This document shows, in pieces, positions 19,420-53,720 of a stretch of DNA of 64,000 nucleotides. Where the stretch lies: the NCBI GenBank assembly GCA_963725825.1, contig CAVSAI010000023.1, forward strand, positions 5,296 through 69,295, in the 5' to 3' direction. The translations under genes were made by a program, and so were the position numbers. The stretch is from Candidatus Aminicenantes bacterium (lineage in GTDB: Bacteria > Acidobacteriota > Aminicenantia > Aminicenantales > Saccharicenantaceae). Position 1 is the first letter of the stretch. Each line of letters begins with the position of its first letter. Below the pieces are notes generated by a model that saw only the letters and a program-made list of their open reading frames with translations, made no database searches and was not told where the DNA came from.

Positions 19420-19541
19420 CTCGAGACCTCCCCGGAAATGACGCCGGGACGGCCCGTTCGTCCGGCCCATTATGGCACAGGCCGGCCCGTCGTGACAAGA
19501 CGGGCGAAGCCATTTATTTTGGGTCCCGAGGGGGGCCGGGA

Positions 19542-21158
19542 TCAGCCGAAAACGGCATAAAGGCCGGCCATCAGCAGGAACAGGACCAGAGAGACGAGCC
19601 GGTAGTCCAGAAGCCCCGGTCCCCAGGGCCCGGCGAGGGCGGCGGACGGCCTCGCCCAGACGAGCTTCGCGCTCTCCTCGGTGTGCACATGGGGACGGAG
19701 GAGCGAGACAACGACCAGGATGGCCGAGCAGACGACGAAGAGATAGAACGTCGCCATCATCGACGGAACGTTCCAACCCGTCGTCCCCTTGAACCAGTCG
19801 AGAAGGAAGACGGTGAGCCCCAGGGCCGAACCGGCCATGAGCGTCACCCGGGCCGCGGCCGCGGACGCCTTCTTCCACAGGACGCCCCAGATGAAGACCG
19901 CGGTGATCGGCGGCGCGATGTAGCAGATGACAGCCGTGATCCCCTGGAACAGGCTCTGGAAATGGCTGATCATCGGCGACCAGAGGATGGCCACGGCCAT
20001 CCCGACGAACGTAACGAGGCGTCCGACAAGGGTCAGGCGCTTTTCCGAGGCTTGCGGGCTGAAGCGCCGGTAGATGTCCAAGGTAAAGAGCGTGGCGATG
20101 GAATTGAGCGCCCCCGAGACGGTGCTCATCAGGGCCGCGAGCAGCGCCGCGGCAACGACCCCCTTGAGGCCCGCCGGCAGGAGATTGTTGACGAGGAGGG
20201 AATAGACATCGGCCGAGCTCTCGGGGGCCGGGAGCGCTCCTTGCTTGACGAGGCCGTAGGCGATGAGCCCGGGCAGAACGAACAGGAATACGGGCAGGAT
20301 CTTGATGAAGCCGGCGAACAGCGGGCCCAGCCGGGCGTTCCGTTCGTCCTTGGCCCCGAGCACGCGCTGGACGATGGTCTGGTCGGCACACCAATACCAG
20401 AGGCCGATGACCGGGTAGCCCAGGAGGACCGCGTACCAGGGCAGGCTCGGCGTCTCGGCGGCCGTCCGCAGCACGGTCAGCTTGACGGGTTCGACCGCGG
20501 CGACAAGCCCCTCCCAACCGCCGATCCGGACCAGTCCGAAGCCGAGGACGCAGGCCGAACCCGCGATGAGGACGACGGTCTGGACCGATTCCGTGACGAC
20601 CACGGCCAGGAGGCCGCCGACGATGGTATAGAGACCGGTGAGGAGGGCCGTGACGAGGATACTGGTATTGATGTCGATCCCGAACAATCCGCGCAGGACG
20701 ACGGCCCCCGTGTAGAGGGAGAAGCCGATATGGATGAAGACGGCCGAGATGATGGACAGCACCGCCAGCCAGTCGCGGCTGGCCCGCGAATAGCGCTTCT
20801 CCAGGAAGTCCGGCAGCGTGGCCACCCGCGCCCGGATGTAGAACGGGGCAAAAAAGAGGGCCAGGACGATGAGCAGGAAGGCGGCCATCCACTCGAAATT
20901 CCCGTAGGCCAGACCGTTGACATAGCCCTCCTGGGCCAGGCTGACCAGGTGGATGGTCGAGATGTTGGTCGAGAAGAGCGCCAGGCCGATGACCGGCCAG
21001 CGCAGCGAGCTGCCGGCGAGGAAGTACTGGGAGCTCGAGGCCTGCTTGGTCCTGCGCCGCCGCCAAGCCCAGAGCCCGAGGCCGACGATGCCGAGGAGAT
21101 AGGCGGCGACAAGGGCGACGTCCAGGCCGGACATGGACAGACGCGAGGCCCCGTTCAT
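19542..21158 (-). CDS. Sodium:solute symporter (SSF, SGLT-like)
   Basis: About 13 hydrophobic segments. YFLAGSSLRWPVIGLALFSTNIST is typical of SSF. ATG at 21158 is preferred over TTG at 21170. Confidence 0.85.
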   Translation of the reverse strand: MNGASRLSMSGLDVALVAAYLLGIVGLGLWAWRRRRTKQASSSQYFLAGSSLRWPVIGLALFSTNISTIHLVSLAQEGYVNGLAYGNFEWMAAFLLIVLALFFAPFYIRARVATLPDFLEKRYSRASRDWLAVLSIISAVFIHIGFSLYTGAVVLRGLFGIDINTSILVTALLTGLYTIVGGLLAVVVTESVQTVVLIAGSACVLGFGLVRIGGWEGLVAAVEPVKLTVLRTAAETPSLPWYAVLLGYPVIGLWYWCADQTIVQRVLGAKDERNARLGPLFAGFIKILPVFLFVLPGLIAYGLVKQGALPAPESSADVYSLLVNNLLPAGLKGVVAAALLAALMSTVSGALNSIATLFTLDIYRRFSPQASEKRLTLVGRLVTFVGMAVAILWSPMISHFQSLFQGITAVICYIAPPITAVFIWGVLWKKASAAAARVTLMAGSALGLTVFLLDWFKGTTGWNVPSMMATFYLFVVCSAILVVVSLLRPHVHTEESAKLVWARPSAALAGPWGPGLLDYRLVSLVLFLLMAGLYAVFG

Positions 21159-21166
21159 GACCGTCC

Positions 21167-21613
21167 TCAATCCAGGTGGAAGACTTCTTCCATCCGGCTC
21201 CAGAACTCCTTATCGCCGCGCGTCGCGATCGGGATCTGGCAGGGGTCGGTCTCCTTCCACCATCGCTGGGTTTCCGGGTCGGCGGCCATCCGGGCCATGT
21301 CGGCCTCGAAATCGCCGCCCGTGTACTCGAAATAGGAGAACAGGAGGTACTGGCCCTTTTCGATCTCGCGGAGATAGATCGAATAGTCGCGGATGTGGCA
21401 TTCCTTGAGCTTGGCCAGGACGCCGGGCCAGGCCGCGGCGTGGAGCCGCTTGTAGTATTCGATCTTATCCGGCTTGAGGCCGATGACCATGCCGTAACGT
21501 TCGACGCGATCCGGGGCGGTCCCGGACCCATTCAGGACGATGGCCGCCGCGGCGAAGGCGATGGCCAACGGAACGGTGATCAGGACGGCCAGGAAGGCGG
21601 TCTTATGTCTCAC
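21167..21613 (-). CDS. L-rhamnose mutarotase (RhaM) family protein with N-terminal hydrophobic anchor/signal
   Basis: YKRLHAAAWPGVLAKLKECHIRDYSIYL...FSYFEY is the RhaM fold signature. GTG start overlaps the fucosidase stop (GTGA). Confidence 0.7.
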   Translation of the reverse strand: MRHKTAFLAVLITVPLAIAFAAAAIVLNGSGTAPDRVERYGMVIGLKPDKIEYYKRLHAAAWPGVLAKLKECHIRDYSIYLREIEKGQYLLFSYFEYTGGDFEADMARMAADPETQRWWKETDPCQIPIATRGDKEFWSRMEEVFHLD

Positions 21614-23067
21614 TTCGCCGCTCCCTGCCCCGCGCCGGCTGCAGGAACGGCGGCGGTGATCTTGACGGCCACGGGCGCTTCGAGCCCCCAGGTCAGCCGC
21701 TGGATGTCGCTCGTCTCAGACTGGCCCCCCGGGGCCGGCTTGGCCTTGATCAGGCGGATGGTCTGCTTGCGGGTGACCGTGATCTTCAGGCCCGCCGGCG
21801 TCTGCTCCCAGGGCAGCTCCCCTTCCTGGCTGAGGAGGGTCACCTTGGTCCCGGGCGTCGCGGAGACGGACTTGAGGAGGAGGGTCCTGGTATTGTCCTG
21901 GAGCACGGCCAGGGCATACAGCGTGCCTTCGGCCCGCTTCTGCGTGAACCAGACGTCGCCCTCGTTCGTGATGCCCCACGGGCGAACGCCGCGCACGGCC
22001 TCGCCGTAGAGCATCATCCACAGGCCGAGGTCGCGGAGGACGTCCTCGTCGGCCGGGGCGATACGACCGTCGGGGCGGGGCCCGATGTTCAGGAGCATGT
22101 TGCCGCCCCGGGCCCGGATGTGGATGAGGTTCTCGATGATCTCGGACGACGGACGGACGACGGCCCCGGGGAGGTAGGACCACTGATAGCTCGTCGTCAG
22201 GCAGCTCTCCCAGGCCCGATCGTCGGCCTTGCCGGGGATCTCCTGCTCCGGGGTCGGGATCTCGCCGCGGCTGATGAAAACATCCTGGCGGACGCGCCAG
22301 GCGTGCTTCTTGAGCGGCTCGCACTTTCCGTCGAACCAGAGCATGAAGACGTCGCCGTAGCGGGTCAGGAGCTCTTCGATCTGGCCGCGCTCGTAATCGA
22401 GAAAGTTCTTCTGCTTCGGGCCGAAGAGGGCGGTGCTCGCGAAGCCGGGCTCATAGATGTGGCCGGTGCGCTGGCCGGTCACCCATTGGTAGCGGAAATC
22501 GCCAGGCGAGTAATAAAACCCGATGAGAATCCCTTCCTTGCGGAAGGCGTCGGCGATCATGGCCGCGATGTCCTTTTCATAGGGCGTCCGGGTGATCTTG
22601 AAGTCGCTGTACCCGGTATCGAAGTTGCAGAAGCCGTCATGGTGCTTGGCCGTAAAGACGACGTATTCCATACCGGCGAGCTTGGCCAGCCGGGCCCAGG
22701 CAGCGGGGTCGAACTCCGTCGGGTTGAAGGTCTCCGCCAAGCCGTAGTATTTTCTGATGTAATCTTCCGAAGCGTTGAAGAGCGGCCAGGAGATCTCGGT
22801 GCCCACCTGGCTGTTCGGGCCCCAGTGGATGAAGAGGCCGAGCCCGGCGTCCCGGAAGATCTCCGTCTTGGCCGGGTCGTTCGAAAGACGGACGGCGTTC
22901 TCGGCAAGAAGGGGCACCGTCGGCTTTTCTGCGGCGGCCGACCCGGTCATCGCGGACGGCGCGGGCGCTGGCGCCTTTCCGGAACATGCGATCGAAGCGG
23001 CGACGGCCGCCATCATCATCACGGCGAGGGCGCATCTGAGGGCACGAGGGGACTTCGCGAGCGTCAT
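21610..23067 (-). CDS. Alpha-L-fucosidase (GH29), lipoprotein
   Basis: GLFIHWGP and YVVFTAKHHDGFCNFDT motifs. Lipobox SIACSG. Confidence 0.85.
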   Translation of the reverse strand: MTLAKSPRALRCALAVMMMAAVAASIACSGKAPAPAPSAMTGSAAAEKPTVPLLAENAVRLSNDPAKTEIFRDAGLGLFIHWGPNSQVGTEISWPLFNASEDYIRKYYGLAETFNPTEFDPAAWARLAKLAGMEYVVFTAKHHDGFCNFDTGYSDFKITRTPYEKDIAAMIADAFRKEGILIGFYYSPGDFRYQWVTGQRTGHIYEPGFASTALFGPKQKNFLDYERGQIEELLTRYGDVFMLWFDGKCEPLKKHAWRVRQDVFISRGEIPTPEQEIPGKADDRAWESCLTTSYQWSYLPGAVVRPSSEIIENLIHIRARGGNMLLNIGPRPDGRIAPADEDVLRDLGLWMMLYGEAVRGVRPWGITNEGDVWFTQKRAEGTLYALAVLQDNTRTLLLKSVSATPGTKVTLLSQEGELPWEQTPAGLKITVTRKQTIRLIKAKPAPGGQSETSDIQRLTWGLEAPVAVKITAAVPAAGAGQGAAK

Positions 23068-23180
23068 GGGGGCCTCCTTCGTCCCTTTCTTTTAATGGAA
23101 CGCGTTCTAAAAAGCAAATCGCGGCGGGCGCCAACGGGCGCCGCGTTGACCCGCTGTCACGGGGGGCCTATAATCCGGGC

Positions 23181-29297: not shown

Positions 29298-30089
29298 ATG
29301 CCGATCATCCCCTTGTCCCCGGAACATGAGCCTCTGTATTGCGTTTGCCTCGAGGAATGGTCGGACGAGCTCAAGGAGGGCGGCGACCACAAGGCCAGGT
29401 GGCTGGCCAAGATGGCGGCCAGAGGCTTGCGGGTCAAGCTCGCCCTCGACGACAAGGGCCAGGTCGGGGGGATGATCCAGTACGTCCCGATCGAGGAGTC
29501 GTTCGTCGACGGCCAGGGCCTTTACTTCATTCCCTGCATCTGGGTCCACGGCTATAAGCAGGGCCGGGGGAATTTCCAGAAAAAGGGCATGGGGACGGCG
29601 CTGCTCGAAGCCGCCGAGGCCGATGCCCGCGAGCTCGGGGCCAAGGGAATGGCCGCTTGGGGCATGGCCCTGCCCGTATTCATGCGGGCATCATGGTTCC
29701 GAAAGCGCGGATACACGAAGGCCGATGCGCTGGGCCTGCAGATCCTCCTCTGGAAGCCTTTCACCGAGGATGCCGTGCCGCCGCGCTGGATCCGGGACAA
29801 GAAGAAGCCCGAGCCGGTGGCGGGCCGTGTGACCGTCACCGCCCTCGTCAACGGCTGGTGCCCGGGCATGAACACGGCGTTCGAGCGGGCGAAACGCGCC
29901 GCCGCGGAGTTCGGCGATAAGGTCGAGTTTCGAGCCGTCGATACGTTCGACCGCGAGGTTTTCAGGGAATGGGGCGAACCCGATGCCATCTTCGTCGACG
30001 GCAAGGGGATCCGTATGGGACCGCCTCCCTCGTACGACAAGATCAGGAAGGCCATCGCCCGGCGGGTCAAGAAGCTGGGCAGACGGTAA
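29298..30089 (+). CDS. GNAT-like N-acetyltransferase fused to a thioredoxin-fold domain
   Basis: ATG at 29298 lies inside ORF 28692..30089. The acetyl-CoA loop is QGRGNFQKKGMGTALL. The C-terminal half VTALVNGWCPGMN...VDGK looks like a single-Cys Trx fold. Confidence 0.6.
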   Translation: MPIIPLSPEHEPLYCVCLEEWSDELKEGGDHKARWLAKMAARGLRVKLALDDKGQVGGMIQYVPIEESFVDGQGLYFIPCIWVHGYKQGRGNFQKKGMGTALLEAAEADARELGAKGMAAWGMALPVFMRASWFRKRGYTKADALGLQILLWKPFTEDAVPPRWIRDKKKPEPVAGRVTVTALVNGWCPGMNTAFERAKRAAAEFGDKVEFRAVDTFDREVFREWGEPDAIFVDGKGIRMGPPPSYDKIRKAIARRVKKLGRR

Positions 30090-30144
30090 TGACAAAGCCC
30101 CGCAGACGCGGAAGAGTTGGAACCCGGCCGAGCGGACAGATCCC

Positions 30145-31398
30145 CTAGCGCCCTCGTTCCTTGGCGAATCCCGCCAGGATCTTGACGGCGTCCGCACCGC
30201 CGACGTCTCCGATCGCCGCCACGGCCTCCTTGCGGACCGCCTCATCGGGGTGCGTCCTGACAAGCTTGACGAGAAGGGGAAGCCCGCTCCGTTTAGGCAG
30301 TTCCGCAATGGCGCGGATCGCCTCCTTCTGGATCTTCGGGTCCCTGTCTCCGGCCGAGATCTTCTCCAGCATCTTGACGGTCGCGTCGGTGGCTTTTTCC
30401 GCCAGGCCCTGGACCGCTTTGCTGCGAACGGAGCCTTCTGCGCTGTTGACGGCGAACGAGATCAACGCCTCGGTGGCGGCCGGAAGGTCCATTTCGACCA
30501 ACCCCTCAACGGCTCGCTCCCGGACCTCGTGGGACGGGTCGGCCTTGATCGTCTTCAGCAGGAGGTCAAGGGCTTTAGGATCGTTCTGCTCGCCCAAGCA
30601 CGCCGCGGCCTCGGCCCGGATCTCGTCAGTCTCCTTGCCGGCCAAGATCCGCTCGACGAACGGCACCACGAGCGCAGGGTGCCGGTGAAGCCCGATGGCC
30701 CAGAGGATCGAGCGCTTGTCTTCCTCGGCGGAGGCCCGGGCGTAGAGAGGGATCAGGAAAGCCAGGCTCTCGGGATCAGTCGCCATTCCCACCCAGACGA
30801 GCGGCAGCTCCTCGAGATCAAAGGGAAGGTCCAGATTGCTGACCCGGATGTCGGCCGGAAAACTCTCGGGCCTCGACGTCAGACGGAGCAGGATGCCGAT
30901 CTCCCTCATCGCGGGACGCTCCGGCTCGTCCCCTCTTCGCGCGGCCTCGAAGGAGCGTACCAGCCCCGGCATGGACGCCGCCGTCCCGCGGGCGGCCTGG
31001 TCGTTGGCCACCTTTCTCTCGAGGGGCGTCTTCCGCCCGTTTATCATATCGTCCAGCGTGATATGCGTTCCGGCGTCACCCCAAGGATGCCAGCCCATCG
31101 ACGAGTGTTCTCCCATCAGGCGGCGGACCCCGAAGCCGAGCCAGAATCCTTTCTCCCACCGGTTGGCCTTCGCTTCGCCGCGGGCCCACGCCACCCGTTC
31201 CGCGATCGGCCCGGACGGAGAGGGCTGGAGAAGCGTCTGAGCGGCGGCCTGATCGGAGATCCGCTCAGGCGGATCGGACACCGTCGCCGCGGCTGCGGCT
31301 TTCGTCGCGTTCGTCTTCCCCGGCGGCGCCGCTCCGGCGATGAGACAGAGACAGAGGAGCGCCAGGCCGATCTTCCCGGACAACCTCTTATCGTCCAT
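30145..31398 (-). CDS. HEAT-repeat protein, secreted/lipoprotein-like
   Basis: Signal peptide, then repeated D/E-x-VR-x-xA-xxALG HEAT-like units (HEVRERAVEGL, DEAVRKEAVAAIG). Confidence 0.7.
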   Translation of the reverse strand: MDDKRLSGKIGLALLCLCLIAGAAPPGKTNATKAAAAATVSDPPERISDQAAAQTLLQPSPSGPIAERVAWARGEAKANRWEKGFWLGFGVRRLMGEHSSMGWHPWGDAGTHITLDDMINGRKTPLERKVANDQAARGTAASMPGLVRSFEAARRGDEPERPAMREIGILLRLTSRPESFPADIRVSNLDLPFDLEELPLVWVGMATDPESLAFLIPLYARASAEEDKRSILWAIGLHRHPALVVPFVERILAGKETDEIRAEAAACLGEQNDPKALDLLLKTIKADPSHEVRERAVEGLVEMDLPAATEALISFAVNSAEGSVRSKAVQGLAEKATDATVKMLEKISAGDRDPKIQKEAIRAIAELPKRSGLPLLVKLVRTHPDEAVRKEAVAAIGDVGGADAVKILAGFAKERGR

Positions 31399-33043
31399 GT
31401 TCGTCCCGGTCCGCGGACGCGCGCCCGGCCGCGACCTTTCTTCCCTTGAGCAATTCGAGCAGGGCCTGGCGGGCCTTGGGCGTCTTGATGTCGCCGAGGG
31501 CCGAGACCGCCGCGGTCCTCACCTCGACCTCGGGATCGGTCCTGGCCGCGTCGATCAGAATAGGCACCGCCTCGTCACTCTCGGAGCTCCCGAGCGCCTC
31601 GACCATCTTTTTCCGCCACTCGCGGTCCTTTTCACCTTTGAGAAGTCCGCCGAGCGCCTTGATCGCGGCCGGGTCGCGCTCGTCCGCCATGGCCTCGAGC
31701 GCCGCCTCCTTGGCCTCGGGGGACTTGGCTCGCCGGTAAACGTCGCCGAGGACCGCGGCCTTGTCGAGATCCTCGATCTCCGCCAAAGCCTGGGCGGCTT
31801 CCCGGGCGAGCTCCGCATTCGTCCCGGCCACGGCCACCGTCACCAGCGCGGCTTGGGCTTCCGCCCCGCCGACCCTGGAAATCGCCTGGAGGACCTCCTG
31901 CTGGACTTCGGCGTCCTTGGCCGCCGACAGGATCTCCTTCAGGCGGGTCAGGCTCTCCGGCGTCCGGTTCTCGGCGATCATCATCGTCGCCGTGCTGCGG
32001 ATCTCCTGGTCGGGGTCTTTCAGGGCCAGCTCTTGCAGGAGCTGTCCGGTCAGGCCGGCCGCGGGCTCATCTTGATCGGCCAGGGAATTGAGTGCCCGGC
32101 GCCTGATCTCGTTGTCCTTGGCCTCTTTGAGGACTTGGATGAGGGCCTCGTCACGGCCGGGCCGGCTCCCCTGAGCGAGGCCTTCCACGGCCAGGCGGGC
32201 GAGCTCGGGGCTCGTGCCGGACAGGGCCACCTGTCTGAAGAAGGCGACGAGGCTCGGGTCCTCGAAATCCGCCAAGGCCTTGAGCGCCGTGCGGCGCAGG
32301 GTGAGCTCGGAGGCGTTCTGGGAGGTATCTTTGAGGACCGGGACCGCCTCGGCATGGCCGGTTTCTCCGAGGGCCGCCAGGGCGCGTCGACGGAGCTCGG
32401 GCGAAGCGTCGGTCCGGGCGATCTCGATGAGCTTTTGCAAAGCCCTGGGATTATCGAACTCGCCCAAGACGTGGATGATCCGCGAGCGGAGCTTGCCCTC
32501 TTCGCTCTGGCTATAAAGGTCGAAAAGGCTCTGGAGGGCGTTGTCGTCGCCGACGTCGCGCAAGGCCTCGAGGGCGGCGATGGCGACGTCTTCGTCGGTC
32601 GTCTTGTCCATGGCCTTGACGATGGCCATATACTCGGGCTTGCCCCGGCTGGCCAATTCCTCGGCGATCTCGATCATCCTCGTCCGGGCGTCGTCGGCCC
32701 ATTCGCTCGTGGGATAGGCGGCGATGAAGTCCTGATAGCACTTGAACACCGAAGCCCGGGGATGATCGTTCTCCTCGAAGACATAGCATTTCCAAAAGCG
32801 GGCGTCGTCGGTCCAGGGGCTCTTGGGAAAGGCGGTGAGGAACTCGTCGAGGGCCTTGGCCGCCCCTTCCCACTCCTCGTCCATGATCAGGCTGTAGACA
32901 GCCTGGAACTTACGGGCATCCTCCGTCTGGGGATCGGCCGGCGAGGGCGACGGGGGCATGGCCGCCAGGCCCAGCGCCAAGACGATGGCAAAGACGACCG
33001 TCAGTACCGTGCTCATCCCGACATGTCCGGCTGTTTTTCTCAT
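31388..33043 (-). CDS. HEAT-repeat protein with TPR/YfiO-like N-terminal domain
   Basis: TM/signal segment, W-rich TPR-like N-domain, then at least 10 HEAT-like units (PELRRRALAALG, QEIRSTATMMI, VEVRTAAVSALG). Confidence 0.7.
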   Translation of the reverse strand: MRKTAGHVGMSTVLTVVFAIVLALGLAAMPPSPSPADPQTEDARKFQAVYSLIMDEEWEGAAKALDEFLTAFPKSPWTDDARFWKCYVFEENDHPRASVFKCYQDFIAAYPTSEWADDARTRMIEIAEELASRGKPEYMAIVKAMDKTTDEDVAIAALEALRDVGDDNALQSLFDLYSQSEEGKLRSRIIHVLGEFDNPRALQKLIEIARTDASPELRRRALAALGETGHAEAVPVLKDTSQNASELTLRRTALKALADFEDPSLVAFFRQVALSGTSPELARLAVEGLAQGSRPGRDEALIQVLKEAKDNEIRRRALNSLADQDEPAAGLTGQLLQELALKDPDQEIRSTATMMIAENRTPESLTRLKEILSAAKDAEVQQEVLQAISRVGGAEAQAALVTVAVAGTNAELAREAAQALAEIEDLDKAAVLGDVYRRAKSPEAKEAALEAMADERDPAAIKALGGLLKGEKDREWRKKMVEALGSSESDEAVPILIDAARTDPEVEVRTAAVSALGDIKTPKARQALLELLKGRKVAAGRASADRDEHGR

Positions 33044-33073
33044 ATTCTTTCTCCTTGATCCGAGGGTTTTATC

Positions 33074-33988
33074 TCAAGCCTCCGCGGCGGTCTCGATTTT
33101 GGCCGGTTTGCGGTCATCGCCCCAGGAGCCCGGCGACGGCCCGGCGCCGGGCTTGCCCTTGGGGCGGCGGACCTCGTTCAGATCGATCTTGAAAAGGATG
33201 TCCCGGCCCTCGACCCCGGCCCTGATGAGCTCGATGTCCGAATCGGACGAATCCGAGGCGAGATTGGAGATCTGGCGAAGGATCATTTCTAGGTCGGATA
33301 TCAATCTCTCGAGACGCCGGTCCGAGCTTCGGAGTTCCTTCTTCAGAACCACGGCTTCCTGCAACAGCTCTCCCGAGGTCTTCTTCTGGAGCGGCAGGTT
33401 GAGTCTGAAGGGGTCCTCGTCCCGGGTGTCCGAGTTGACGACCGCGAGGAGGAGCACCCTTGACCGCTTGAGGTAGCGGGAGGCGCGAAGGGCGATCGAC
33501 GGCGCGGCCGGGCCGGATGCAGGCGCCAGGTGTCCGCCCGGAGCGGTTTCGGACGAAGTCGTTCGGACCAGGGCGAGATGCCCGGCCGCCGGACGGAAAA
33601 GGACACGCCCGATGAAGATCCCGATGACGATAAAGAGCAATGCCCCTGCCGTGCCGTAGGCCCAAACCGGGAGCGCGAGCGGACTCCGCGATTGTCCTGG
33701 TCCCGAGGCCGAACGGGCCCCTCTTTCTGCCGCGGCGCCGTCGGAAGCTTCCGGATCGCGCGCCATCCGCGACTCGAGCCGCTGCCAATAGCTCTGCCAG
33801 AACTCGGGGGCGCGATCAGGGGCCGGCCTGGCCTCCATCTTCCGGACCGCCGCGGCCATACCTTCATAAAGCCGGGCACATCCGCCGCAGGCCGCAAGGT
33901 GGCTCTCCATCTTCTCGCGAGTTTTCGCGTCCAGCTCCTTGTAGATGGCCTCGGGGATCCTGTTTCGCCAGTATCGACATCTCTTCAT
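33074..33988 (-). CDS. Anti-sigma factor (zf-HC2) with one TM helix
   Basis: N-terminal H-x3-C-x2-C motif (HLAACGGC), a central TM segment (AGALLFIVIGIFIG), and ATGA overlap with the sigma gene. Confidence 0.7.
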   Translation of the reverse strand: MKRCRYWRNRIPEAIYKELDAKTREKMESHLAACGGCARLYEGMAAAVRKMEARPAPDRAPEFWQSYWQRLESRMARDPEASDGAAAERGARSASGPGQSRSPLALPVWAYGTAGALLFIVIGIFIGRVLFRPAAGHLALVRTTSSETAPGGHLAPASGPAAPSIALRASRYLKRSRVLLLAVVNSDTRDEDPFRLNLPLQKKTSGELLQEAVVLKKELRSSDRRLERLISDLEMILRQISNLASDSSDSDIELIRAGVEGRDILFKIDLNEVRRPKGKPGAGPSPGSWGDDRKPAKIETAAEA

Positions 33989-34572
33989 GGACGGTCTCCA
34001 TGGTCTGAACAGGGCTCGGCGTCATCGAGCTCCTTCTGGAGCTTTTGGATCGAGCGAAAGAGATAGCTCTTCACTGAGCCCAGGCTGACGCCTAGGGTTT
34101 GGGCGATCTCCTTGATCTTCAGGTCGTGATAGTGGCGGAGGATAAAGACCGCCCGCTCCCGCTCCGAGAATGTGGCCAGGGCTTCGTCGATCCGGCGGCG
34201 CAGGCAGGCGACCTCGACGGCCAGTTCGGGCCCCGGCGCGGTATCGAAGGGCTCATTGAAGGGTCGCGCGGAAGAAGGTGAGACCGCTTCTTTGGGATAG
34301 AAGGACCTCTTCCGGAGGTGGTCGAGTGCTGTGTTATGGGTGATCTGGTAGATCCATGTGTTCAGCCCGTGGCCCGGTTTGATCGTCCCGATCGCTTTGT
34401 GGATCTTCATGAACGTGATCTGAGAGATATCTTCCGCGTCGGCGTTATTTCGCGTCATCTCAAAAGCCAGCCCGTAGACCTTCCTCTTATAGGTTTCGAC
34501 GAGCTCGCGAAAGGCAGAGGGGTCGCCGGCGATCAGGCGGTCCGCCCAGCGGGCCTCGTCCTCACGGCTCAT
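33985..34572 (-). CDS. ECF (sigma-70 group IV) sigma factor
   Basis: ATG at 34572 inside ORF 33985..34788. Region 2 is DAEDISQITFMKIH...WIYQITHN. The region 4 HTH is IKEIAQTLGVSLGSVKSYLFR. Confidence 0.85.
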   Translation of the reverse strand: MSREDEARWADRLIAGDPSAFRELVETYKRKVYGLAFEMTRNNADAEDISQITFMKIHKAIGTIKPGHGLNTWIYQITHNTALDHLRKRSFYPKEAVSPSSARPFNEPFDTAPGPELAVEVACLRRRIDEALATFSERERAVFILRHYHDLKIKEIAQTLGVSLGSVKSYLFRSIQKLQKELDDAEPCSDHGDRP

Positions 34573-34663
34573 CTCATCTCCGGAGTAGAGACGCGCGGGG
34601 AGGGGCAAAGGATGGCAAGCGCGCGACGGCTGCGGGTCGGGCTCATGGGGCTCCAGTCTAGCA

Positions 34664-34692
34664 TTGACGCTCCGGTCCCGGAAACATAGAAT
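34664..34692 (+). promoter_or_regulatory. sigma70-like promoter (TTGACG-N17-TAGAAT)
   Basis: Hexamers at 34664-34669 and 34687-34692, 50 nt upstream of the ATG at 34743. Confidence 0.45.
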
Positions 34693-34742
34693 GGGCCCGA
34701 ATGCGCCGGGGCGCAGGACCCACAGCCCCCTGGGAGGTTCCC

Positions 34743-37040
34743 ATGCGTCAGCCGTATCATACTCTGGCCAAGGCCGTCCTGATCTCAACGGTGTTCGGCC
34801 TGATTCTCATTTTTCCCGACCGCGTGGCCGCCGGCCCTCCGGGCTACGGCTATCTCGTCCAGGCCGGCCCGCGCTGCGCCGTGTGGTGGGCCGAAGGCGC
34901 CCACAAGGTCATGAGAGACGACCCCGTCCCCGCGGCCGTCCAGGGCGTTGTCCGCATCGCCGCGGCCCGGAACGAATACGAGCCGTTCCTGATCGTCCTC
35001 AACCCGGAGACGCGGCTCGACGGCGTCAGGATCGCGGTCTCCCCTCTCGCCAACGAAGAGGGAGGGACGATCGGACCCGCCGGGGTGACCGTCTGCCACG
35101 TCGGCTACGTCGAGGTGACCACGCCGACGGACGCGCTCGGCCAAGCGGGCTGGTGGCCCGATCCGCTTCCGCCCTATGACGGGCCTTTTGCGGCGGCCGC
35201 GGGCGAGAACCATCCCCTCTGGATCACGGTCCGGGTCCCGAAAGAGTCGGCTCCCGGGATCTACAAGGGCGAAGTCCGGCTCGGCGCGGAGGGCTGGTCC
35301 TGCCGCGTGCCGGTCGAGCTCCGGGTCTGGGGGTTCACGCTCCCCGAACGATCGTCCGTGCGATCGTCCTTCGGCCTTCCGACGGGCGATATCAAAGCCT
35401 ATCACAACCTCGAGACGCGCGAGGAGCTCGAAAAGGTCGTGGACCTCTATTATCAGGACATGCGCGAGCACCGCGTCGCCCCCACCGCGCCCTTCGAGCT
35501 CTATCCTATGACTGTCGCGACGAGCGGCGTCTTCTGGAAAGGCGGCGAATTCGTCACGGATGGAGTGCATGCCGGGCGCCGGGCTCTTAAGGTCACGGAT
35601 GATACGGTGGAGAAAAACATCGCCGCCGATTACGACGCGCCGATCCTGCTCGACGATCACTCCCCCGTAAAACTGACATTCTGGGCCCGGACGGCCGAAG
35701 CCGGCCAAAAGTACACGGTCCTCTCCGAGTTCTTCACCCCCGAAAAGACGTGGATCGCAGGCGCGAACCTGCTCCAGGTCTTCGAAGGCGCGACGGAATG
35801 GAAACAGCAGTCGGTCGAATTCCCGCCCCTCCCCGGCGACGCATCGAGCCTCAGGCTGAGTCTCTTTCCCGCTTTCCGCGACAACGCCGGCACGACGAAG
35901 GGAACGGCTTGGTTCGACGACATCGTCCTTCAGGCGGCGGCGAAAGGACCGGAGGCGCGAACCGAGAATATCCTGCCGGGCGGCGATTTCGAGATGCCGC
36001 TCGAGGGCATGACGGTGGCCGTTGACTTTTCCGAATTCGACCGGGGCGCCCGCCGCTTCCTCGACGAGCTCGGCTTCAATTCCTATGACCTTCCCCTCGC
36101 CGGCCTCGGGACGGGGTCGTTCTACAGCCGGCAGGAAGGGACCTTCTGCGGCTTCCGCCAGGGCACGCCCGAGTACGACGCCCTGATCAGCCAATATCTC
36201 AAACAGGTCGAGGACCACCTGGCCCGGAACGGCTGGCTCGGCCGCGAGTACATCTATTGGTTCGACGAGCCCGATCCGAAGGACTATCCCTTCGTCCGCG
36301 AGGGCATGCTCAACATCCGGAAGAACGCCCCGCGCCTGACCCGTTTCATCACCGAGCACCGCCCCGGCCCGGAGATCATGGATGTTTCCGAGATCGGCTG
36401 CACCATCTTCGACCGGGTCGATCCCAAGGCCGTGGCCGAGCTCGCCCCGAAGGGCCGCGAGTTCTGGTCCTACCTCTGCACCGGACCCAAATCCCCCTGG
36501 GTAACATTGTTCATCGACCATCCTGCGGTCAACATGCGCATGTGGCTATGGATGACCTACAAGTGGGGGCTCAAGGGCATCCTCGTCTGGCGGGCCGACT
36601 ACTGGAACAGCCCGACGCTATTCCCCCCGGACATGCTGCAGAACCCTTGGCAGGACCCGATGTCCTACACGGTCGGCTACGGCGTTCCGTTCGGCCAAGT
36701 CAATCACTGGGGCAACGGAGACGGCCGCTTCCTTTATCCGCCGAACCGCGACCCCGGCAAGGACAAAGCGAAGTACCTCTGCGGCCCGGTCGATTCGGTC
36801 CGCTGGGAGATCCTCCGCGAGGGCATCGAGGACTACGAGTATTTCGTGCTTCTTGAAAAGGCCATTGCGGCCGCCAAGGGCAAGACCAAGCTCAAGGCCG
36901 CGGCCGCCGAGGCCGCGAAACTCCTCGATTTCCCGGCGACGCTCTTTACGACCGGCAAGGACTACACCAAGGACCCGCTGGTCCTGCTCGACCTCCGGGC
37001 GAGGGTCGCCGCCGCCATCGAAAAGCTTGCGGCACGCTGA
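34743..37040 (+). CDS. DUF4091-type putative glycoside hydrolase with an inserted CBM-like module, secreted
   Basis: ATG at 34743 with a GGAGG SD and a signal peptide. The ARNEYEPF, HPLWITVRVP, VWGFTLP and C-terminal WEILREGIEDYEY motifs resemble DUF4091/GH123-like proteins. The middle segment ends in GTAWFDDIVL (CBM-like). Confidence 0.65.
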   Translation: MRQPYHTLAKAVLISTVFGLILIFPDRVAAGPPGYGYLVQAGPRCAVWWAEGAHKVMRDDPVPAAVQGVVRIAAARNEYEPFLIVLNPETRLDGVRIAVSPLANEEGGTIGPAGVTVCHVGYVEVTTPTDALGQAGWWPDPLPPYDGPFAAAAGENHPLWITVRVPKESAPGIYKGEVRLGAEGWSCRVPVELRVWGFTLPERSSVRSSFGLPTGDIKAYHNLETREELEKVVDLYYQDMREHRVAPTAPFELYPMTVATSGVFWKGGEFVTDGVHAGRRALKVTDDTVEKNIAADYDAPILLDDHSPVKLTFWARTAEAGQKYTVLSEFFTPEKTWIAGANLLQVFEGATEWKQQSVEFPPLPGDASSLRLSLFPAFRDNAGTTKGTAWFDDIVLQAAAKGPEARTENILPGGDFEMPLEGMTVAVDFSEFDRGARRFLDELGFNSYDLPLAGLGTGSFYSRQEGTFCGFRQGTPEYDALISQYLKQVEDHLARNGWLGREYIYWFDEPDPKDYPFVREGMLNIRKNAPRLTRFITEHRPGPEIMDVSEIGCTIFDRVDPKAVAELAPKGREFWSYLCTGPKSPWVTLFIDHPAVNMRMWLWMTYKWGLKGILVWRADYWNSPTLFPPDMLQNPWQDPMSYTVGYGVPFGQVNHWGNGDGRFLYPPNRDPGKDKAKYLCGPVDSVRWEILREGIEDYEYFVLLEKAIAAAKGKTKLKAAAAEAAKLLDFPATLFTTGKDYTKDPLVLLDLRARVAAAIEKLAAR

Positions 37041-41518: not shown

Positions 41519-41578
41519 GGGACAGTCCCCTCCGGGGACAGTCCCTTTTCAGAACTCGTACCCAAGGGACATGTCCCC
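41519..41578. repeat. Cluster of three GGGAC..GTCCC palindromes immediately 3' of dnaE2
   Basis: GGGACAGTCCCC at 41519-41530, GGGGACAGTCCC at 41534-41545 and GGGACATGTCCCC at 41566-41578. The first two together can fold into a 27-nt hairpin. Confidence 0.7.
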
Positions 41579-41579
41579 A

Positions 41580-44500
41580 TCAGAACGACCTCAGGAAAGT
41601 ACACTTGGTGATCTTGGGGACTCCCTCCCCGTCAACCCGGACCTCGCCGCGCAGGAAACAGACGGGCGGCATCCCGTAGGTCGTGCAGTGCGTCTCGCCG
41701 ACACCCTCGAGGAGGCCCGTTTCGTCCTCGAAGATGTAAAAATACTTTGCGCCGCCGTTCCCATTCCCGTTCCCGCCGTATCCCCCGGGGCCCCCGTCCG
41801 CCTTCTCCGGCTCCTCGTCGTCACCGCCGCCGGCCCCTCCGCCATACCCGCCATACCCGCCGCGGCCCTTGCCTTCCTGCACGGTGTTATAGGTCACCCT
41901 CTGACGGGCGTCGACGACCCGGACGACGAGCTCGACCATGGTCCCGGCGCAATCCTTGAGGTCCTTCACCCGCAGCTCCGGCCGCTTCCCCTCGTAGAGA
42001 TCGAGGTCGTCCCCGTCCGGAAGGAACCCGAGGGCCTCGAAGATCATGCGTCGCTTCTCGTCCGAGGCGATGTCGGCCACCTCCTCCATGTTCTCGAGGC
42101 CCTGGAAGTAGCGCAGCACCTGGCGCGTCCGCCGCGGCTCGAGGGAGTCGAAGACGCCGGCCTTGATGAGGGTCAGGAGCTCGGCCTTGCCGGGCTTCGT
42201 CCGGGCCAGGAAGTCCTCGACCGACAGATACTCGCCGCCCGCCGCCCGCTCGTCGAGGAGGCGCTCGATCGTCTTCAGGCCGAGGCCCTTGATCGAGGTC
42301 AGGCCGACGCGGATCGCCCCGCCCCCCGCCGCCGCCTCGACCTCGAAGCCGGACCCGCTGCGGTTGGCGTCCGGCCCCAGGATGCGGATGCCGTTCCTCT
42401 TCGCTTCGGCGACGTACTCCGGCAGATCGTAGTAGCCGCCGCCGGCGTTGAGCACGGCCGCGAAATACGTCACCGGTTGGTGGACCTTGAGATAGACGGC
42501 CTGGTAGGCCATGTGGGCGTAGGAGGCGCTGTGGGCCTTGTTGAAGGAGTAGGAGGAGAACTTCTCCATGGTCTTCCACAGCCGCTCGACCTCCGGCGCC
42601 CCGTAGCCGCGCTCGCCGGCCTCGCGGGCGAACTTGGCCCGGAGCGCCGCATCGCCGCCCCGCCCCTGCTTCAGGCTCCGCCGCAGGAGGTCCCCCTCCT
42701 CCGGGGGCATGCCGGCCACGCGCTCGGCGACCTGCATGACCTGCTCCTCGTAGAGAAGGATGCCGCCGGTCTCGGGCAGGATGCGGGCGAGAAAGGCGTC
42801 GTCGCTTGGGGACATGTACCTCTGGTACGTGTCCCCGTTTTTCGCCGGCCCTCGCCGGCCGCTGCGCCGCCGCAGGAGCGCCTCCTTCATGCCGCTCTCG
42901 GTCGGCCCGGGCCGGACCAGGGCCAGGGCCTGGGTGATCTCGTGGATGTCCACGGGCTTCATCCGCCGCAGGAGGTTCATCATGGCCGGGCTCTCGACCT
43001 GGAAGCAGCCGACCGTCCGGGCGGCCCGCAGCGCCGCGTACGTCGCCGCGTCCCCGGGCGGCAGGGCCCGCAGCTGGAGCTTCTCTTTCGTCTCCGAGAT
43101 GGCCGCCAGGCCCCGCACCGAGAGGAGGTCGAGCTTGATCAGCCGCAGGTCCTCGACCGCGTCCTTGTCGAAGTGGGTCATGCGCAGGCCCTTGGCCGAG
43201 GTCTCGAGGGGCAGATACCGCTCGACCGGCCCCGGGGTCAGGATGACGCCGCCGACGTGGAGGGAGATCTCGTGATAGACGTCCTGGAGCTCGGCGGCGA
43301 GCTTCCAGACGTCGAGGCGGCCCGGCGCCGGGGCGGCCAGTCGGAGGCTCGACGGCTCGGCGAAATACGGCACGCGCTTCGACAGGCTCCGCGCCTCCTC
43401 GGGCGGGGCGCCGAACGCGCGGAGCGTTTCGTAGAGGGCCGAGCGGCCGCCGAAGCTCTTGAGGCTGCAGACGTAGGCCGCGCCGGTCTTGCCCGCGCCG
43501 TAGCGCTCGAGGACGTACTTCAGGACCTCGTCGCGGCGCCGGGAGTCGAAATCGATGTCGATGTCGGGCGGGTCGGGCCGGCCGCGGTTGAGGAAGCGCT
43601 CGAAATAGAGATCGAACTCCATCGGGCTGACGTGGGAGATGCCGAGGAGCCAGGCCAGGAAGGACGAGGCCCCCGATCCCCGCAGGTTGTGGAGGATGCC
43701 GCGGCCGCGGGCGAACTCGACGATGTCGTGGACGGCGAGGAAGTAGGGGCCGAAGCCCGACTGCTCGACCGCCGTGAGCTCGCGGCGGGCCCGCTGGCGC
43801 TCCTTCCAGGTCAGGTTCTTCGCCGCCGTGAGCCGCTCCATGACGACCTCGCGGAGGGTCCGGGGGAAGAGGTCGGCCGGGAGGCCGGGGATGACGTTCT
43901 CGAAGACGAACTCGCACTTTTCGGCGACCTCGGCCGTCCGGGCCAGGGCGTCCCGGGCCGCGTCGCCGAAGCGGCGCAGGGCCAGCGCCTCCTGGTCAGG
44001 CCCGAAGAGTCTCATCTTGCCCAGGAGCCGGTCGCGCTCCGGCGGGTAGGGGATCTTTTGCTCGATGGCATGGAGGAGGACGAGGCGCTCCGGGCTCGTC
44101 AGGTACTTGAGGGGGTTGGCCCAGACGACGGGCAAGGCGACTGGGGGACATGTTCCAATTTCGAAGAAATTGGTACGTGTCCCCCATTCCGTCTTCCAAT
44201 GATCCGCCTGAAGTTCCCGAAATCCGCCCCGAGGTAGAGGTCGCCCGGCGCGACTTTCCCCCGGAGCTCGGCCAGCATCGCGGCTTCGCTCGCCCAGCCG
44301 TGTCCCCTTTCTTGTCCCCTTTCGCGCCCCCGGCCATGCCCTCGTCCTCTCCTTTCGGGGACAGTCCCCCGGGGATGTAGATCGCGATGAGCCCGGAGGC
44401 GTCGCGGATGTCCCTGCGGTTGAAGATCTCCATGAGGTTCGAGTAGCCCTCCCGCGTCTTGACCAGGAAGACGAACCGCCGGCCCCCGCACTCGAGCTCG

Positions 44501-44690
44501 CAGCCGAAGATGGGCTTGAACCCGCCCGCCGGCGCGATGCGCTTCCACTTGCCCCAGCCGTAGATGTTGCCGATGTCCGCCAGGGCCGCGGCCGGAAGCC
44601 TTTTCCCCCGGTCCAGCCGGCCGCCTCTTCGAGCGTGACGCTCCCTCTCCCCCGGCTGTACACCGAATGGATGCGCAGCGGCACGAACAT
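41580..44690 (-). CDS. dnaE2: Error-prone DNA polymerase III alpha (DnaE2/ImuC-like). The 5' 600 nt are frame-disrupted at three points
   Basis: From about 44127 downward the ORF is a clean DnaE core (GYFLAVHDIV-type region, PDIDIDF, FQVESP, LVRPGP, FNKAHSASYA). The first 24 aa (MFVPLRIHSVYSRGRGSVTLEEAA) are PHP-like. Homology then continues in the frames of ORFs 43996..46125 and 44099..44548 before returning. Confidence 0.75.
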   Translation of the reverse strand: MFVPLRIHSVYSRGRGSVTLEEAAGWTGGKGFRPRPWRTSATSTAGASGSASRRRAGSSPSSAASSSAGAGGSSSWSRRGRATRTSWRSSTAGTSATPPGSSRSTSPGDCPRKERTRAWPGARKGTRKGTRLGERSRDAGRAPGESRAGRPLPRGGFRELQADHWKTEWGTRTNFFEIGTCPPVALPVVWANPLKYLTSPERLVLLHAIEQKIPYPPERDRLLGKMRLFGPDQEALALRRFGDAARDALARTAEVAEKCEFVFENVIPGLPADLFPRTLREVVMERLTAAKNLTWKERQRARRELTAVEQSGFGPYFLAVHDIVEFARGRGILHNLRGSGASSFLAWLLGISHVSPMEFDLYFERFLNRGRPDPPDIDIDFDSRRRDEVLKYVLERYGAGKTGAAYVCSLKSFGGRSALYETLRAFGAPPEEARSLSKRVPYFAEPSSLRLAAPAPGRLDVWKLAAELQDVYHEISLHVGGVILTPGPVERYLPLETSAKGLRMTHFDKDAVEDLRLIKLDLLSVRGLAAISETKEKLQLRALPPGDAATYAALRAARTVGCFQVESPAMMNLLRRMKPVDIHEITQALALVRPGPTESGMKEALLRRRSGRRGPAKNGDTYQRYMSPSDDAFLARILPETGGILLYEEQVMQVAERVAGMPPEEGDLLRRSLKQGRGGDAALRAKFAREAGERGYGAPEVERLWKTMEKFSSYSFNKAHSASYAHMAYQAVYLKVHQPVTYFAAVLNAGGGYYDLPEYVAEAKRNGIRILGPDANRSGSGFEVEAAAGGGAIRVGLTSIKGLGLKTIERLLDERAAGGEYLSVEDFLARTKPGKAELLTLIKAGVFDSLEPRRTRQVLRYFQGLENMEEVADIASDEKRRMIFEALGFLPDGDDLDLYEGKRPELRVKDLKDCAGTMVELVVRVVDARQRVTYNTVQEGKGRGGYGGYGGGAGGGDDEEPEKADGGPGGYGGNGNGNGGAKYFYIFEDETGLLEGVGETHCTTYGMPPVCFLRGEVRVDGEGVPKITKCTFLRSF
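44143..44185. repeat. 43-nt near-perfect palindrome inside dnaE2 (insert E2)
   Basis: Minus strand reads GGGGGACACGTACCAATTT-cttcg-AAATTGGAACATGTCCCCC, with 17 of 19 stem pairs. It coincides with the third frame change. Confidence 0.8.
44300..44370. repeat. GGGGAC-motif insert inside dnaE2 (insert E1)
   Basis: Minus strand reads GGGGGACTGTCCCC...GAAAGGGGACAAGAAAGGGGACAC. It coincides with the second frame change, and this stretch has no counterpart in the DnaE2/ImuC layout I recall. Confidence 0.7.
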
Positions 44691-44708: not shown

Positions 44709-45947
44709 TCATTTCGTCAGGGACGCCGTCTTGAGGACGTAGCCCCGCCGCGGCTCGAAGGCGTAGACGGCGTCGAGCATCTTTTCCCGGATCGTCAGGA
44801 CCGAGCCGAAGCCGTACTTGCCGCGGACCTGGTCGATGGCCCCGCCGAGCCGCTCCGGCCGGTCCGAGTAGGGCTCGAAGAGCGCCAGGGGCCGGACGCG
44901 GACGAGGTCCGAGGCCTTGACCCCGACCAGGCGCAGGGCCAGCCGCGAGCCGGCGGTGAGCTCGAGGAAGAGCTCCTCGGCGATCTTGTAGATCTTGCTC
45001 ATCTCCTGGAGCGGCGAGAGCACGAGACGGCGCTTGATCTCGGTCTTGAAGTCGGCGTAGCGGGCCTTGACCTCGATGACGTGGGCGTAGAGCCGGTCCT
45101 CGCGCAGGGCCAGGGTCAGCCGGTCGCAGAGGTAGGCCAGGTGGGCCAGGAGCAGGCGCTTGTCCCAGAGGTCCTCGAGGAAGGTCGTCTCGCGCGAGAC
45201 GGACTTGGGCAGCGTCCGCGTGACCAGCGGCCGGCAGTCGATGCCGCGCGACTGGAGATAGATGTCGTCGCCGCCCTCGCCGAAGAGCGTGTGCAGGGTC
45301 CCCCGCGGCAGATCCCACAGCTCGCCGATCTTGTGGATGTTCATCAGCCGCAGGACGACCTGGGCCTTGGGGCCGATGCCGGGCAGGGCCTCGATGCCGA
45401 GGTCGCGGAGATAGGTCTGCTCCTCGCCCTCGCGGATCTCGAAGAAGCCGGCCGGCTTGGCCCGGCGCGTGGCCAGCTTGGCCAGGATCTTGTTCGGCGC
45501 GGCCCCGACCGAGACCGTGACCCCGATCTCGCGCTCGACCTGCCGCTTGAGCTCGCGGGCCGCCTCCGTGAACGAGGGATAGATGTGGCCGCAGCGGGTG
45601 AGATCCAGGTAGGCCTCGTCGAGCGAGGCCTCCTCGACGTCCGGGGTCGCGGTGTGGAGGACGCGGAAGAAGCGCTCGGAGAAGGCCTGGTAGACCTGGA
45701 AGTTGCCGCGGACGAAGACGCCCTGGGGGCAGAGCTTGTAGCACTCGCGGAGCGGCATGCCCGAGTGGACGCCGAACTTGCGGGCCTCGTAGGAGCAGGT
45801 CGAGGCCACGCCGCGCTCGTGGGGGAGGCCGCCGACGATGACCGGCTTGCCCGCGAGCGAGGGGTCGAGCAGGACCTCGACGGCGGCGAAGAAGGCGTCG
45901 ATGTCGACGTGGACGATGTACCGACGCCCTTTTTTCGACAAAGACAC
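44709..45947 (-). CDS. dinB: Y-family DNA polymerase IV (catalytic-type DinB, in the imuB position of the cassette)
   Basis: VHVDIDAFFAAVE and SLDEAYLDLT catalytic acidic motifs are retained. GTG start with an AAGGAGG SD. It lies 18 nt upstream of the dnaE2 ATG. Confidence 0.85.
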   Translation of the reverse strand: MSLSKKGRRYIVHVDIDAFFAAVEVLLDPSLAGKPVIVGGLPHERGVASTCSYEARKFGVHSGMPLRECYKLCPQGVFVRGNFQVYQAFSERFFRVLHTATPDVEEASLDEAYLDLTRCGHIYPSFTEAARELKRQVEREIGVTVSVGAAPNKILAKLATRRAKPAGFFEIREGEEQTYLRDLGIEALPGIGPKAQVVLRLMNIHKIGELWDLPRGTLHTLFGEGGDDIYLQSRGIDCRPLVTRTLPKSVSRETTFLEDLWDKRLLLAHLAYLCDRLTLALREDRLYAHVIEVKARYADFKTEIKRRLVLSPLQEMSKIYKIAEELFLELTAGSRLALRLVGVKASDLVRVRPLALFEPYSDRPERLGGAIDQVRGKYGFGSVLTIREKMLDAVYAFEPRRGYVLKTASLTK

Positions 45948-46027: not shown

Positions 46028-46645
46028 TCAGTACTTGCGCATGATGCCGATGACCCGCCCCAGGATCTTGGCCGACGGGGCCTCGATCGGCTGGAAGGCC
46101 GGGTTCTCCGGGACGAGAAAGACATGACCGTTGTCGCGGCGCAGGCGCTTGAGCGTGACCGAGCCGTCGTCGAGCATGGCCACGACCATCTCGCCCGAGT
46201 TGGCCAGGTTGGTCCGCTCGAGCAGGACGTGGTCGCCGTCGTCGATGTAGGCGTCGATCATGCTCTTGCCGTCGACCCGGATGCAGAAGACGTTGCCCCG
46301 GCGGCGGCCGACCATCCAGCCCGGGACGTCCATGGCCTCGCCGGTCGCGTCGAACGACTCGCGCGGCCCGCCGGCCGGGACGAGGCCGGCCACCGGCACC
46401 CGGACCTGGCTCTCGACGAGGGCCGCGAGGCCGGCCACCCGGATCTCGCCGTCGGCGCGGCTGATGTAGCCCTTGCGCTCCAGGCTCTGGAGGTGCTTGA
46501 GGACGGCCGAGGGGCTGGGGATCTTGAGGGCCGAGCCCAGCTGGCGGATGGTCGGGGCGTAGCCGTGCTCGAGGACATAATCCTCGACGGCCTTGAGGAC
46601 CTTGGCCTGCCGGAGGGTCAGTTCCCGTCTCAATGTGTTTACCAT
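46028..46645 (-). CDS. lexA: LexA repressor
   Basis: Winged HTH (PTIRQLGSALKIPSPSAVLKHLQSLERKGYI), cleavage-site region VAG, and S24 peptidase Ser/Lys motifs (VDGKSM ... TLKRL). ATG at 46645 with an AAGGTG SD is preferred over GTG at 46654. Confidence 0.9.
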   Translation of the reverse strand: MVNTLRRELTLRQAKVLKAVEDYVLEHGYAPTIRQLGSALKIPSPSAVLKHLQSLERKGYISRADGEIRVAGLAALVESQVRVPVAGLVPAGGPRESFDATGEAMDVPGWMVGRRRGNVFCIRVDGKSMIDAYIDDGDHVLLERTNLANSGEMVVAMLDDGSVTLKRLRRDNGHVFLVPENPAFQPIEAPSAKILGRVIGIMRKY

Positions 46646-46661
46646 TTTGTTCACCTTTTAT

Positions 46662-53693: not shown

Positions 53694-53720
53694 GGGGACA
53701 CGTACCAGGTACATGTCCCC
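53694..53720. repeat. 27-nt palindrome GGGGACACGTACC-A-GGTACATGTCCCC
   Basis: It has the same ATGGGGACACGTACC left arm as dnaE2 insert E2. It sits between the R3 remnant and a terminator module. Confidence 0.75.

Follow-up and report, generated by a model that had tools for sequence, protein, structure and literature searches.

The closest described recoding system to the locus studied here is dnaX of E. coli, in which the slippery heptamer A-AAA-AAG is accompanied by an upstream Shine-Dalgarno-like element and a downstream hairpin. A partly similar arrangement is found in a 64,000-nucleotide stretch of a Candidatus Aminicenantes genome (hereafter the window), where a polymerase-related gene carries a zero-frame X-XXY-YYZ heptamer at a −1 frame change. 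However, the dnaX site and its stimulators are conserved, whereas the heptamer at a frame change is here private to one assembly and has no stimulators. Moreover, the shifted frame of dnaX stops at once and gives a shorter product, whereas a shift in the window would be needed for the full-length protein and yet would be insufficient to produce it.

The gene itself is best compared with dnaE2/imuC of the lexA-imuA-imuB-dnaE2 cassettes. It has the same PHP, DNA_pol3_alpha, finger and HhH architecture and is likewise a second alpha-subunit paralogue located directly behind lexA and a Y-family polymerase. Unlike these cassettes, the locus lacks an imuA-like gene; its Y-family partner matches IMS at full strength, and translated REP-type palindromes occur in the PHP loops and in one core loop. 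A third point of comparison is provided by the indel errors of Nanopore-only metagenome-assembled genomes (MAGs) generated with Flye and Medaka, such as those of Microflora Danica, for which one Medaka polishing round against indel errors was applied (PMC12313526). As in such genomes, an otherwise conserved gene in the window is split by an indel of one base that lies in a short run and is private. The elements of the locus, in window coordinates, are the following.

46028 to 46654, minus strand: lexA, which opens the lexA / Y-family polymerase / dnaE2 cassette.
44709 to 45947, minus strand: Y-family polymerase gene (IMS, IMS_C), directly upstream of dnaE2.
44601 to 44690, minus strand: piece A, dnaE2 codons 1-30 in the ATG frame (MFVPLRIHSVYSRGRGSVTLEEAAGWTGGK), 93-97% identical to the relatives G009 and G004, where it is contiguous and in frame with piece B.
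44601 to 44609, minus strand: break 1, the G5A4 tract with the heptamer, one base fewer than in every orthologue.
44365 to 44601, minus strand: piece B, PHP-domain core (RLPAAALADIGNIYGW...LIAIYIPGG), visible in translation only when read −1 to the ATG; the Pfam PHP match spans A and B.
44298 to 44307, minus strand: break 2, GGGGACA-CGG versus GGGGATACCGG in L032 and G004, one base fewer, no heptamer.
44201 to 44293, minus strand: piece C, ASEAAMLAELRGKVAPGDLYLGADFGNFRRI, in the third frame (three-frame translation and orthologue placement).
44186 to 44205, minus strand: break 3, GGATCATTGGAAGACGGAAT versus GGAT-ATTGGAAGAC-GAAT in L032, two additional bases, separated by 11 nt (net +2).
44139 to 44189, no strand assigned: REP-type hairpin GGGGGACACGTACCAATTTC ttc GAAATTGGAACATGTCCCCC, located in PHP-domain variable loop 2.
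41580 to 44132, minus strand: piece D, polymerase core, fingers, HhH, C-terminal region and stop, 850 unbroken codons with the ATG frame regained.

The dnaE2-like open reading frame runs on the minus strand from the ATG at 44690 to the stop at 41580 and comprises 1036 codons. Pfam detects in it DNA_pol3_alpha (1e-58), the finger domain (1e-34) and HHH_6 (about 1e-21), but the uncorrected 1036-aa product gives no PHP match. Relatives also carry a replicative DnaE of ~1,160-1,190 aa, 38% identical to the dnaE2-like protein; no copy of this replicative gene was found in the 70%-complete MAG to which the window belongs. Given this separate replicative DnaE and the linkage to lexA and the Y-family polymerase, an order also found in the contigs L032, L053 and L054, the gene is predicted from its sequence to encode a dnaE2/imuC-type SOS error-prone polymerase.

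At break 1, the minus strand reads ACC GGG GGA AAA GGC (44612-44598), ACC being codon 27 of the reading frame that opens at ATG 44690. The five G occupy 44609-44605 and the four A 44604-44601, so that the tract is GGGGGAAAAGG. The heptamer G-GGA-AAA (44607-44601) lies in X-XXY-YYZ register with the start codon and coincides with the −1 frame change, and its identification in the earlier note as a canonical slippery heptamer at the first frame change of dnaE2 was thus borne out. Three-frame translation gives 30 sensible codons in the ATG frame, followed by low-complexity nonsense, and from break 1 onwards a PHP-domain homology in the −1 frame, RLPAAALADIGNIYGWGKWKRIAPAGGFKPIFGCELECGG...LIAIYIPGG. 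When pieces A and B are joined, a Pfam PHP match (residues 5-92, E = 3e-10) extends over the junction. The product of a −1 slip had also been said to keep the usual PHP-domain spacing, and this is correct, since in the orthologues GG and RLP are separated by a single residue (Q, K or R). On the other hand, heptamers of the XXXYYYZ type occur about four times per kb per strand in the window, seven of them in register within the dnaE2 reading frame, and GGGAAAA is counted 435 times in the genome. By itself, the heptamer is unremarkable.

To compare the site between relatives, the four protein pieces were placed on 20 orthologous loci. Pieces A and B are contiguous and in one frame in all 13 complete orthologues from genome relatives, and in most complete orthologues all four pieces share a single frame. 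The sister genome G009 reads ACC GGG GGA CAA AGG (GGGGGACAAAGG), with Gln at the critical position and in frame; G004 reads GCC GGA GGG CAA AGG (GGAGGGCAAAGG), and the ENA contig L032 reads GCC GGC GGG CAA AGG (GGCGGGCAAAGG). In L053, the tract is GCC GGG GGA AAA AGG (GGGGGAAAAAGG), i.e., G5A5, and its in-frame Lys is the residue expected from the proposed slip. In more distant relatives, unrelated Arg or Lys codons occupy this place. An apparent frame change in G013 was discarded, as it corresponds to a masked run of N and not to a frameshift.

The relatives being in frame here, the window lacks one base of a G5-A-(C/A)-A3 tract, either the C of CAA, as present in G009, G004 and L032, or one A of the A5 run, as present in L053. 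The canonical-looking heptamer is a by-product of this loss, because removal of such a base automatically yields G5A4. The earlier note had itself offered, as an alternative to the slip, that one A or G of the run is missing from the assembly. A missing base fits all the comparative evidence, including an A5 to A4 change relative to L053, and the comparison adds the C of CAA as a further candidate.

The slip itself is not supported. Orthologues without a slippery sequence, which the earlier note had named as grounds for rejecting it, are what the comparison shows: of the 16 examined at the site, 15 lack the sequence, and in the remaining one, L053, G-GGA-AAA is read without any shift. A downstream stimulatory structure was not recovered either: the 101 nt following break 1 fold with a minimum free energy of −43.4 kcal/mol versus a mean of −44.1 for shuffled sequences (z = 0.19), and an Rfam search gave no match. 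By inspection, no Shine-Dalgarno-like element is seen at a dnaX-like distance, the nearest GAGG being ~17 nt upstream. After break 1, the zero frame remains open as far as the gene end and never terminates, whereas the −1 frame reached by the slip loses homology again at 44300 and meets a stop near 44010. As further, heptamer-free breaks follow downstream, the protein would not be restored by slipping at break 1.

These later breaks were located with the help of L032, which has the same loop architecture as the window genome. Within 470 nt, break 1 is followed by a −1 change and then by a net +2 change, neither of them at a heptamer. Break 2 (GDT|GWASE, ACCGG to ACGG) lies 60 nt downstream of IPGG and 60 nt from any GGG-GGA. 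At break 3, the extra bases are at about 44201 and 44190; its division into two events is tentative, because L032 alone has this linker in common with the window. The ATG frame is then regained at LPVVWANPLKYL, as seen by three-frame translation, and piece D is 85-96% identical within the genus. Altogether, the four indels (−1, −1, +1, +1) sum to zero and the 1036-aa reading frame stays open. An earlier, wider suggestion that every frame switch occurs at an in-frame GGG-GGA was rejected on the position of break 2. The GGGGGA motifs belong to one arm of the REP-type palindrome (GGGGGAC) and to the IPGG codons, and intact orthologues read through both.

Programmed −1 ribosomal frameshifting, by a single slip on G-GGA-AAA or by three −1 slips in series at GGG-GGA motifs beginning there, with full-length DnaE2 as the product, would account for the zero-frame register of the heptamer, for the slip product TGGK-RLPAAA with its orthologue-like spacing, and for the fact that all three frame changes are formally −1. 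In view of the missing conservation and stimulators, the never-terminating zero frame and a second break away from any heptamer, it is nevertheless extremely unlikely. Three serial shifts would also give a very low yield, and a literature search gave no paper that links dnaE2 with programmed frameshifting. A related explanation, slippage of RNA polymerase on the G5A4 tract, would add a base in part of the mRNAs. Homopolymer-dependent slippage of this kind occurs in dnaX of Thermus and in IS elements. The tracts known for it, however, have at least 7 identical bases, whereas the runs here have 5 and 4; in addition, the tract is not conserved and the later breaks would persist, so that the probability of this explanation is practically negligible. 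The heptamer at break 1 is incidental and not a recoding signal, and the finding is an ordinary one.

Two explanations of break 1 concern the base itself, missing either from the assembly or from the organism. We favour the first explanation, with a probability of roughly 60%: break 1 would be an indel error of the assembly consensus rather than a real mutation. A single base would have been lost from a tract that relatives read as GGG GGA CAA AGG (Gln) or GGG GGA AAA AGG (Lys), most likely during consensus building in a long-read metagenome assembly, and break 1 would be one of about four single-base errors clustered in 470 nt. The real gene would then be an ordinary, intact dnaE2/imuC-type polymerase of an SOS cassette.

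Several properties of the window genome (G000) agree with such an origin. It is a 2.9-Mb MAG of 60 contigs, with a normal genome size but a CheckM completeness of 70%; its N50 is 76 kb, no contig is shorter than 5 kb, and a 16S-23S operon lies inside a 108-kb contig. To estimate the frameshift rate, continuous open reading frames from 400 kb of the relative G005 were compared with the whole genome. Five internal single-base frameshifts were found in 48,404 aa, versus one or two in the reverse comparison, which corresponds to ~1 per 29 kb of coding sequence (~5 genes per 145 kb). Two further candidates from this comparison were non-coding artefacts and were rejected. The five frameshifted genes encode a Gfo/Idh/MocA-type oxidoreductase, an RND pump, a FAD oxidoreductase, an outer-membrane receptor-like protein and an eRF1-like protein (positions C22:43823, C13:13562, C45:50500, C32:10910 and C32:16000). 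When these other frameshifted genes were checked for essential ones, they proved to be of accessory type. With its long contigs, binned rRNA operon, lowered completeness and raised frameshift rate, G000 looks like a long-read MAG and resembles the Nanopore-only genomes mentioned above. Its sister G009 is a Candidatus Aminicenantes MAG from Microflora Danica.

The comparison with other assemblies points in the same direction. In all Flye-style contig_N assemblies inspected, dnaE2 is out of frame, each time at a different and private place. In G009 (L003), it is broken twice, in PHP loops; L032 (ERZ25039554 contig_7591) contains one additional A in piece B, and its C-terminus is shifted; L053/P0008 (ERZ25039489 contig_96708) is shifted after ANRSG; and in L054/P0003 (ERZ25039554 contig_31354) the shift affects the Gly-rich tail. 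The neighbouring lexA, Y-family polymerase and peptidase genes are whole in these contigs. On the other hand, more than 100 of the homologues listed (JGI, NCBI and other sources) are full-length with all four Pfam domains. None of the four indels of the window occurs in any other assembly. The garbled 150 aa are shared by none of 140 matches from 5.8 billion proteins; high identity in this search is restricted to the first 30 aa, and full-length alignments reach only 30-36%. Exact scans with the deleted and the undeleted tract gave no match in metagenome contigs, and in genome contigs only the in-frame G009 copy.

The substitution pattern provides a further argument. Pieces A-C contain 3 synonymous and 1 non-synonymous G000-specific substitutions in 405 nt, and the intact core 18 and 5, respectively, in 2.5 kb. 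The four indels are thus not accompanied by any excess of substitutions, and the equal density and preserved synonymous bias fit a long-read consensus error and not the decay of a gene.

Some observations nonetheless stand against a simple error. The neighbouring genes, ~8,000 aa in total, show no frame break relative to G004 or G009, and four indels in 470 nt are far above the background of ~1 per 29 kb, much denser than in the rest of G000, so that the cluster in dnaE2 needs a local cause. In addition, loss of the C from GACAAAG is not a classic homopolymer error, whereas A5 to A4 would be. As a possible local cause, we postulate that the two REP-containing loops, which vary in length between related and possibly co-occurring lineages, could disturb the assembly through strain mixture or through their hairpins; mixed reads from co-occurring lineages would degrade the consensus. 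In line with such co-occurrence, L032 and L054 share the assembly ERZ25039554.

The rival explanation is that the base is truly missing, the frameshifts in the PHP domain of dnaE2 being real. The gene would then be a pseudogene of recent origin or carry a compensated series (−1, −1, +1, +1, net 0). In the latter form, the native start would be kept and ~150 PHP residues scrambled, while the polymerase core would still be made. The unbroken neighbours suit this explanation, as the cluster is then not simply background error, and a sum of zero with an open 1036-aa reading frame is also what a real compensated series would give. Besides, SOS mutasome genes are dispensable, and G019, a relative whose genome is one contig, carries a +1 insertion of its own in the PHP region. 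However, four indels would have had to accumulate in a time too short for neutral substitutions, with no substitution excess and with the changes in pieces A-C still biased to synonymous ones. Chance alone would bring 37.5% of sets of four ±1 events to a net of zero, and at 65% GC the off-frames of this genome are frequently open. The private breaks found in each long-read assembly, but not in the full-length homologues, also disagree with a real mutation. Taken together, we regard a truly missing base as possible, though doubtful. It is very unlikely that the four changes are real and the gene is also expressed, be it through serial −1 recoding at GGGGGA motifs or as a compensated series with ~150 out-of-frame PHP residues.

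Were the deletion real, it would show no more than that dnaE2 is inactivated, or scrambled at its N-terminus, in a single Aminicenantes lineage; were the compensated series true, the PHP fold would be dispensable for this polymerase. The biological weight of the result is small. With a consensus error as the preferred reading, it prevents a chance heptamer in an SOS polymerase gene from being listed as a recoding site, and it flags G000 and its sister long-read MAGs for gene-splitting frameshift errors, in dnaE2 in particular.

In the long-read-style assemblies, dnaE2 shows roughly 10 events in 15 kb, compared with ~1 per 29 kb of coding sequence in G000. The gene seems to be specifically susceptible to indels, whether these are consensus errors or real. 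The insertion of G019 (L017, 1040-1520) consists of one base, CTGGTCGAAGAG versus CTGGTT-AAGAG in G027; it breaks the PHP region of dnaE2, leads to a stop and is independent of the breaks in the window.

The REP-type hairpin is a dispersed element of ~27 nt, GGGACAYGTACC-N3-GGTACRTGTCCC, with ~20 canonical copies in G000 (28 with looser matches) and dozens in relatives. Copies in the window are located at 44139-44189, 42805-42838, 44351-44368, 41519-41579 and 53694-53720. The hairpin is mostly intergenic, yet it lies in frame in three dnaE2 loops, and the orthologues translate the copy of the PHP loop in frame. Different species translate it in all three frames, as GHVPISSKLEHVP, GTCSNFxEIGTCP and GDTYQxYMSP. 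In the Gly/Tyr-rich C-terminal tract (41751-41873) and in the loop KNGDTYQRYMSPSDD (42805-42838), species differ by in-frame indels of 3-24 nt.

In the relative G001, one contig (C5:95181-99504) carries lexA, the Y-family polymerase gene and the first ~240 nt of dnaE2 twice in tandem. The rest of its dnaE2 starts another contig (C1:1-3114), with the junction near window positions 44447-44459; this tandem may be an assembly artefact or a duplication. Finally, the stretches 19487-23142 and 30078-34845 of the window are absent from the syntenic contigs of G004, indicating that gene content differs between close relatives.
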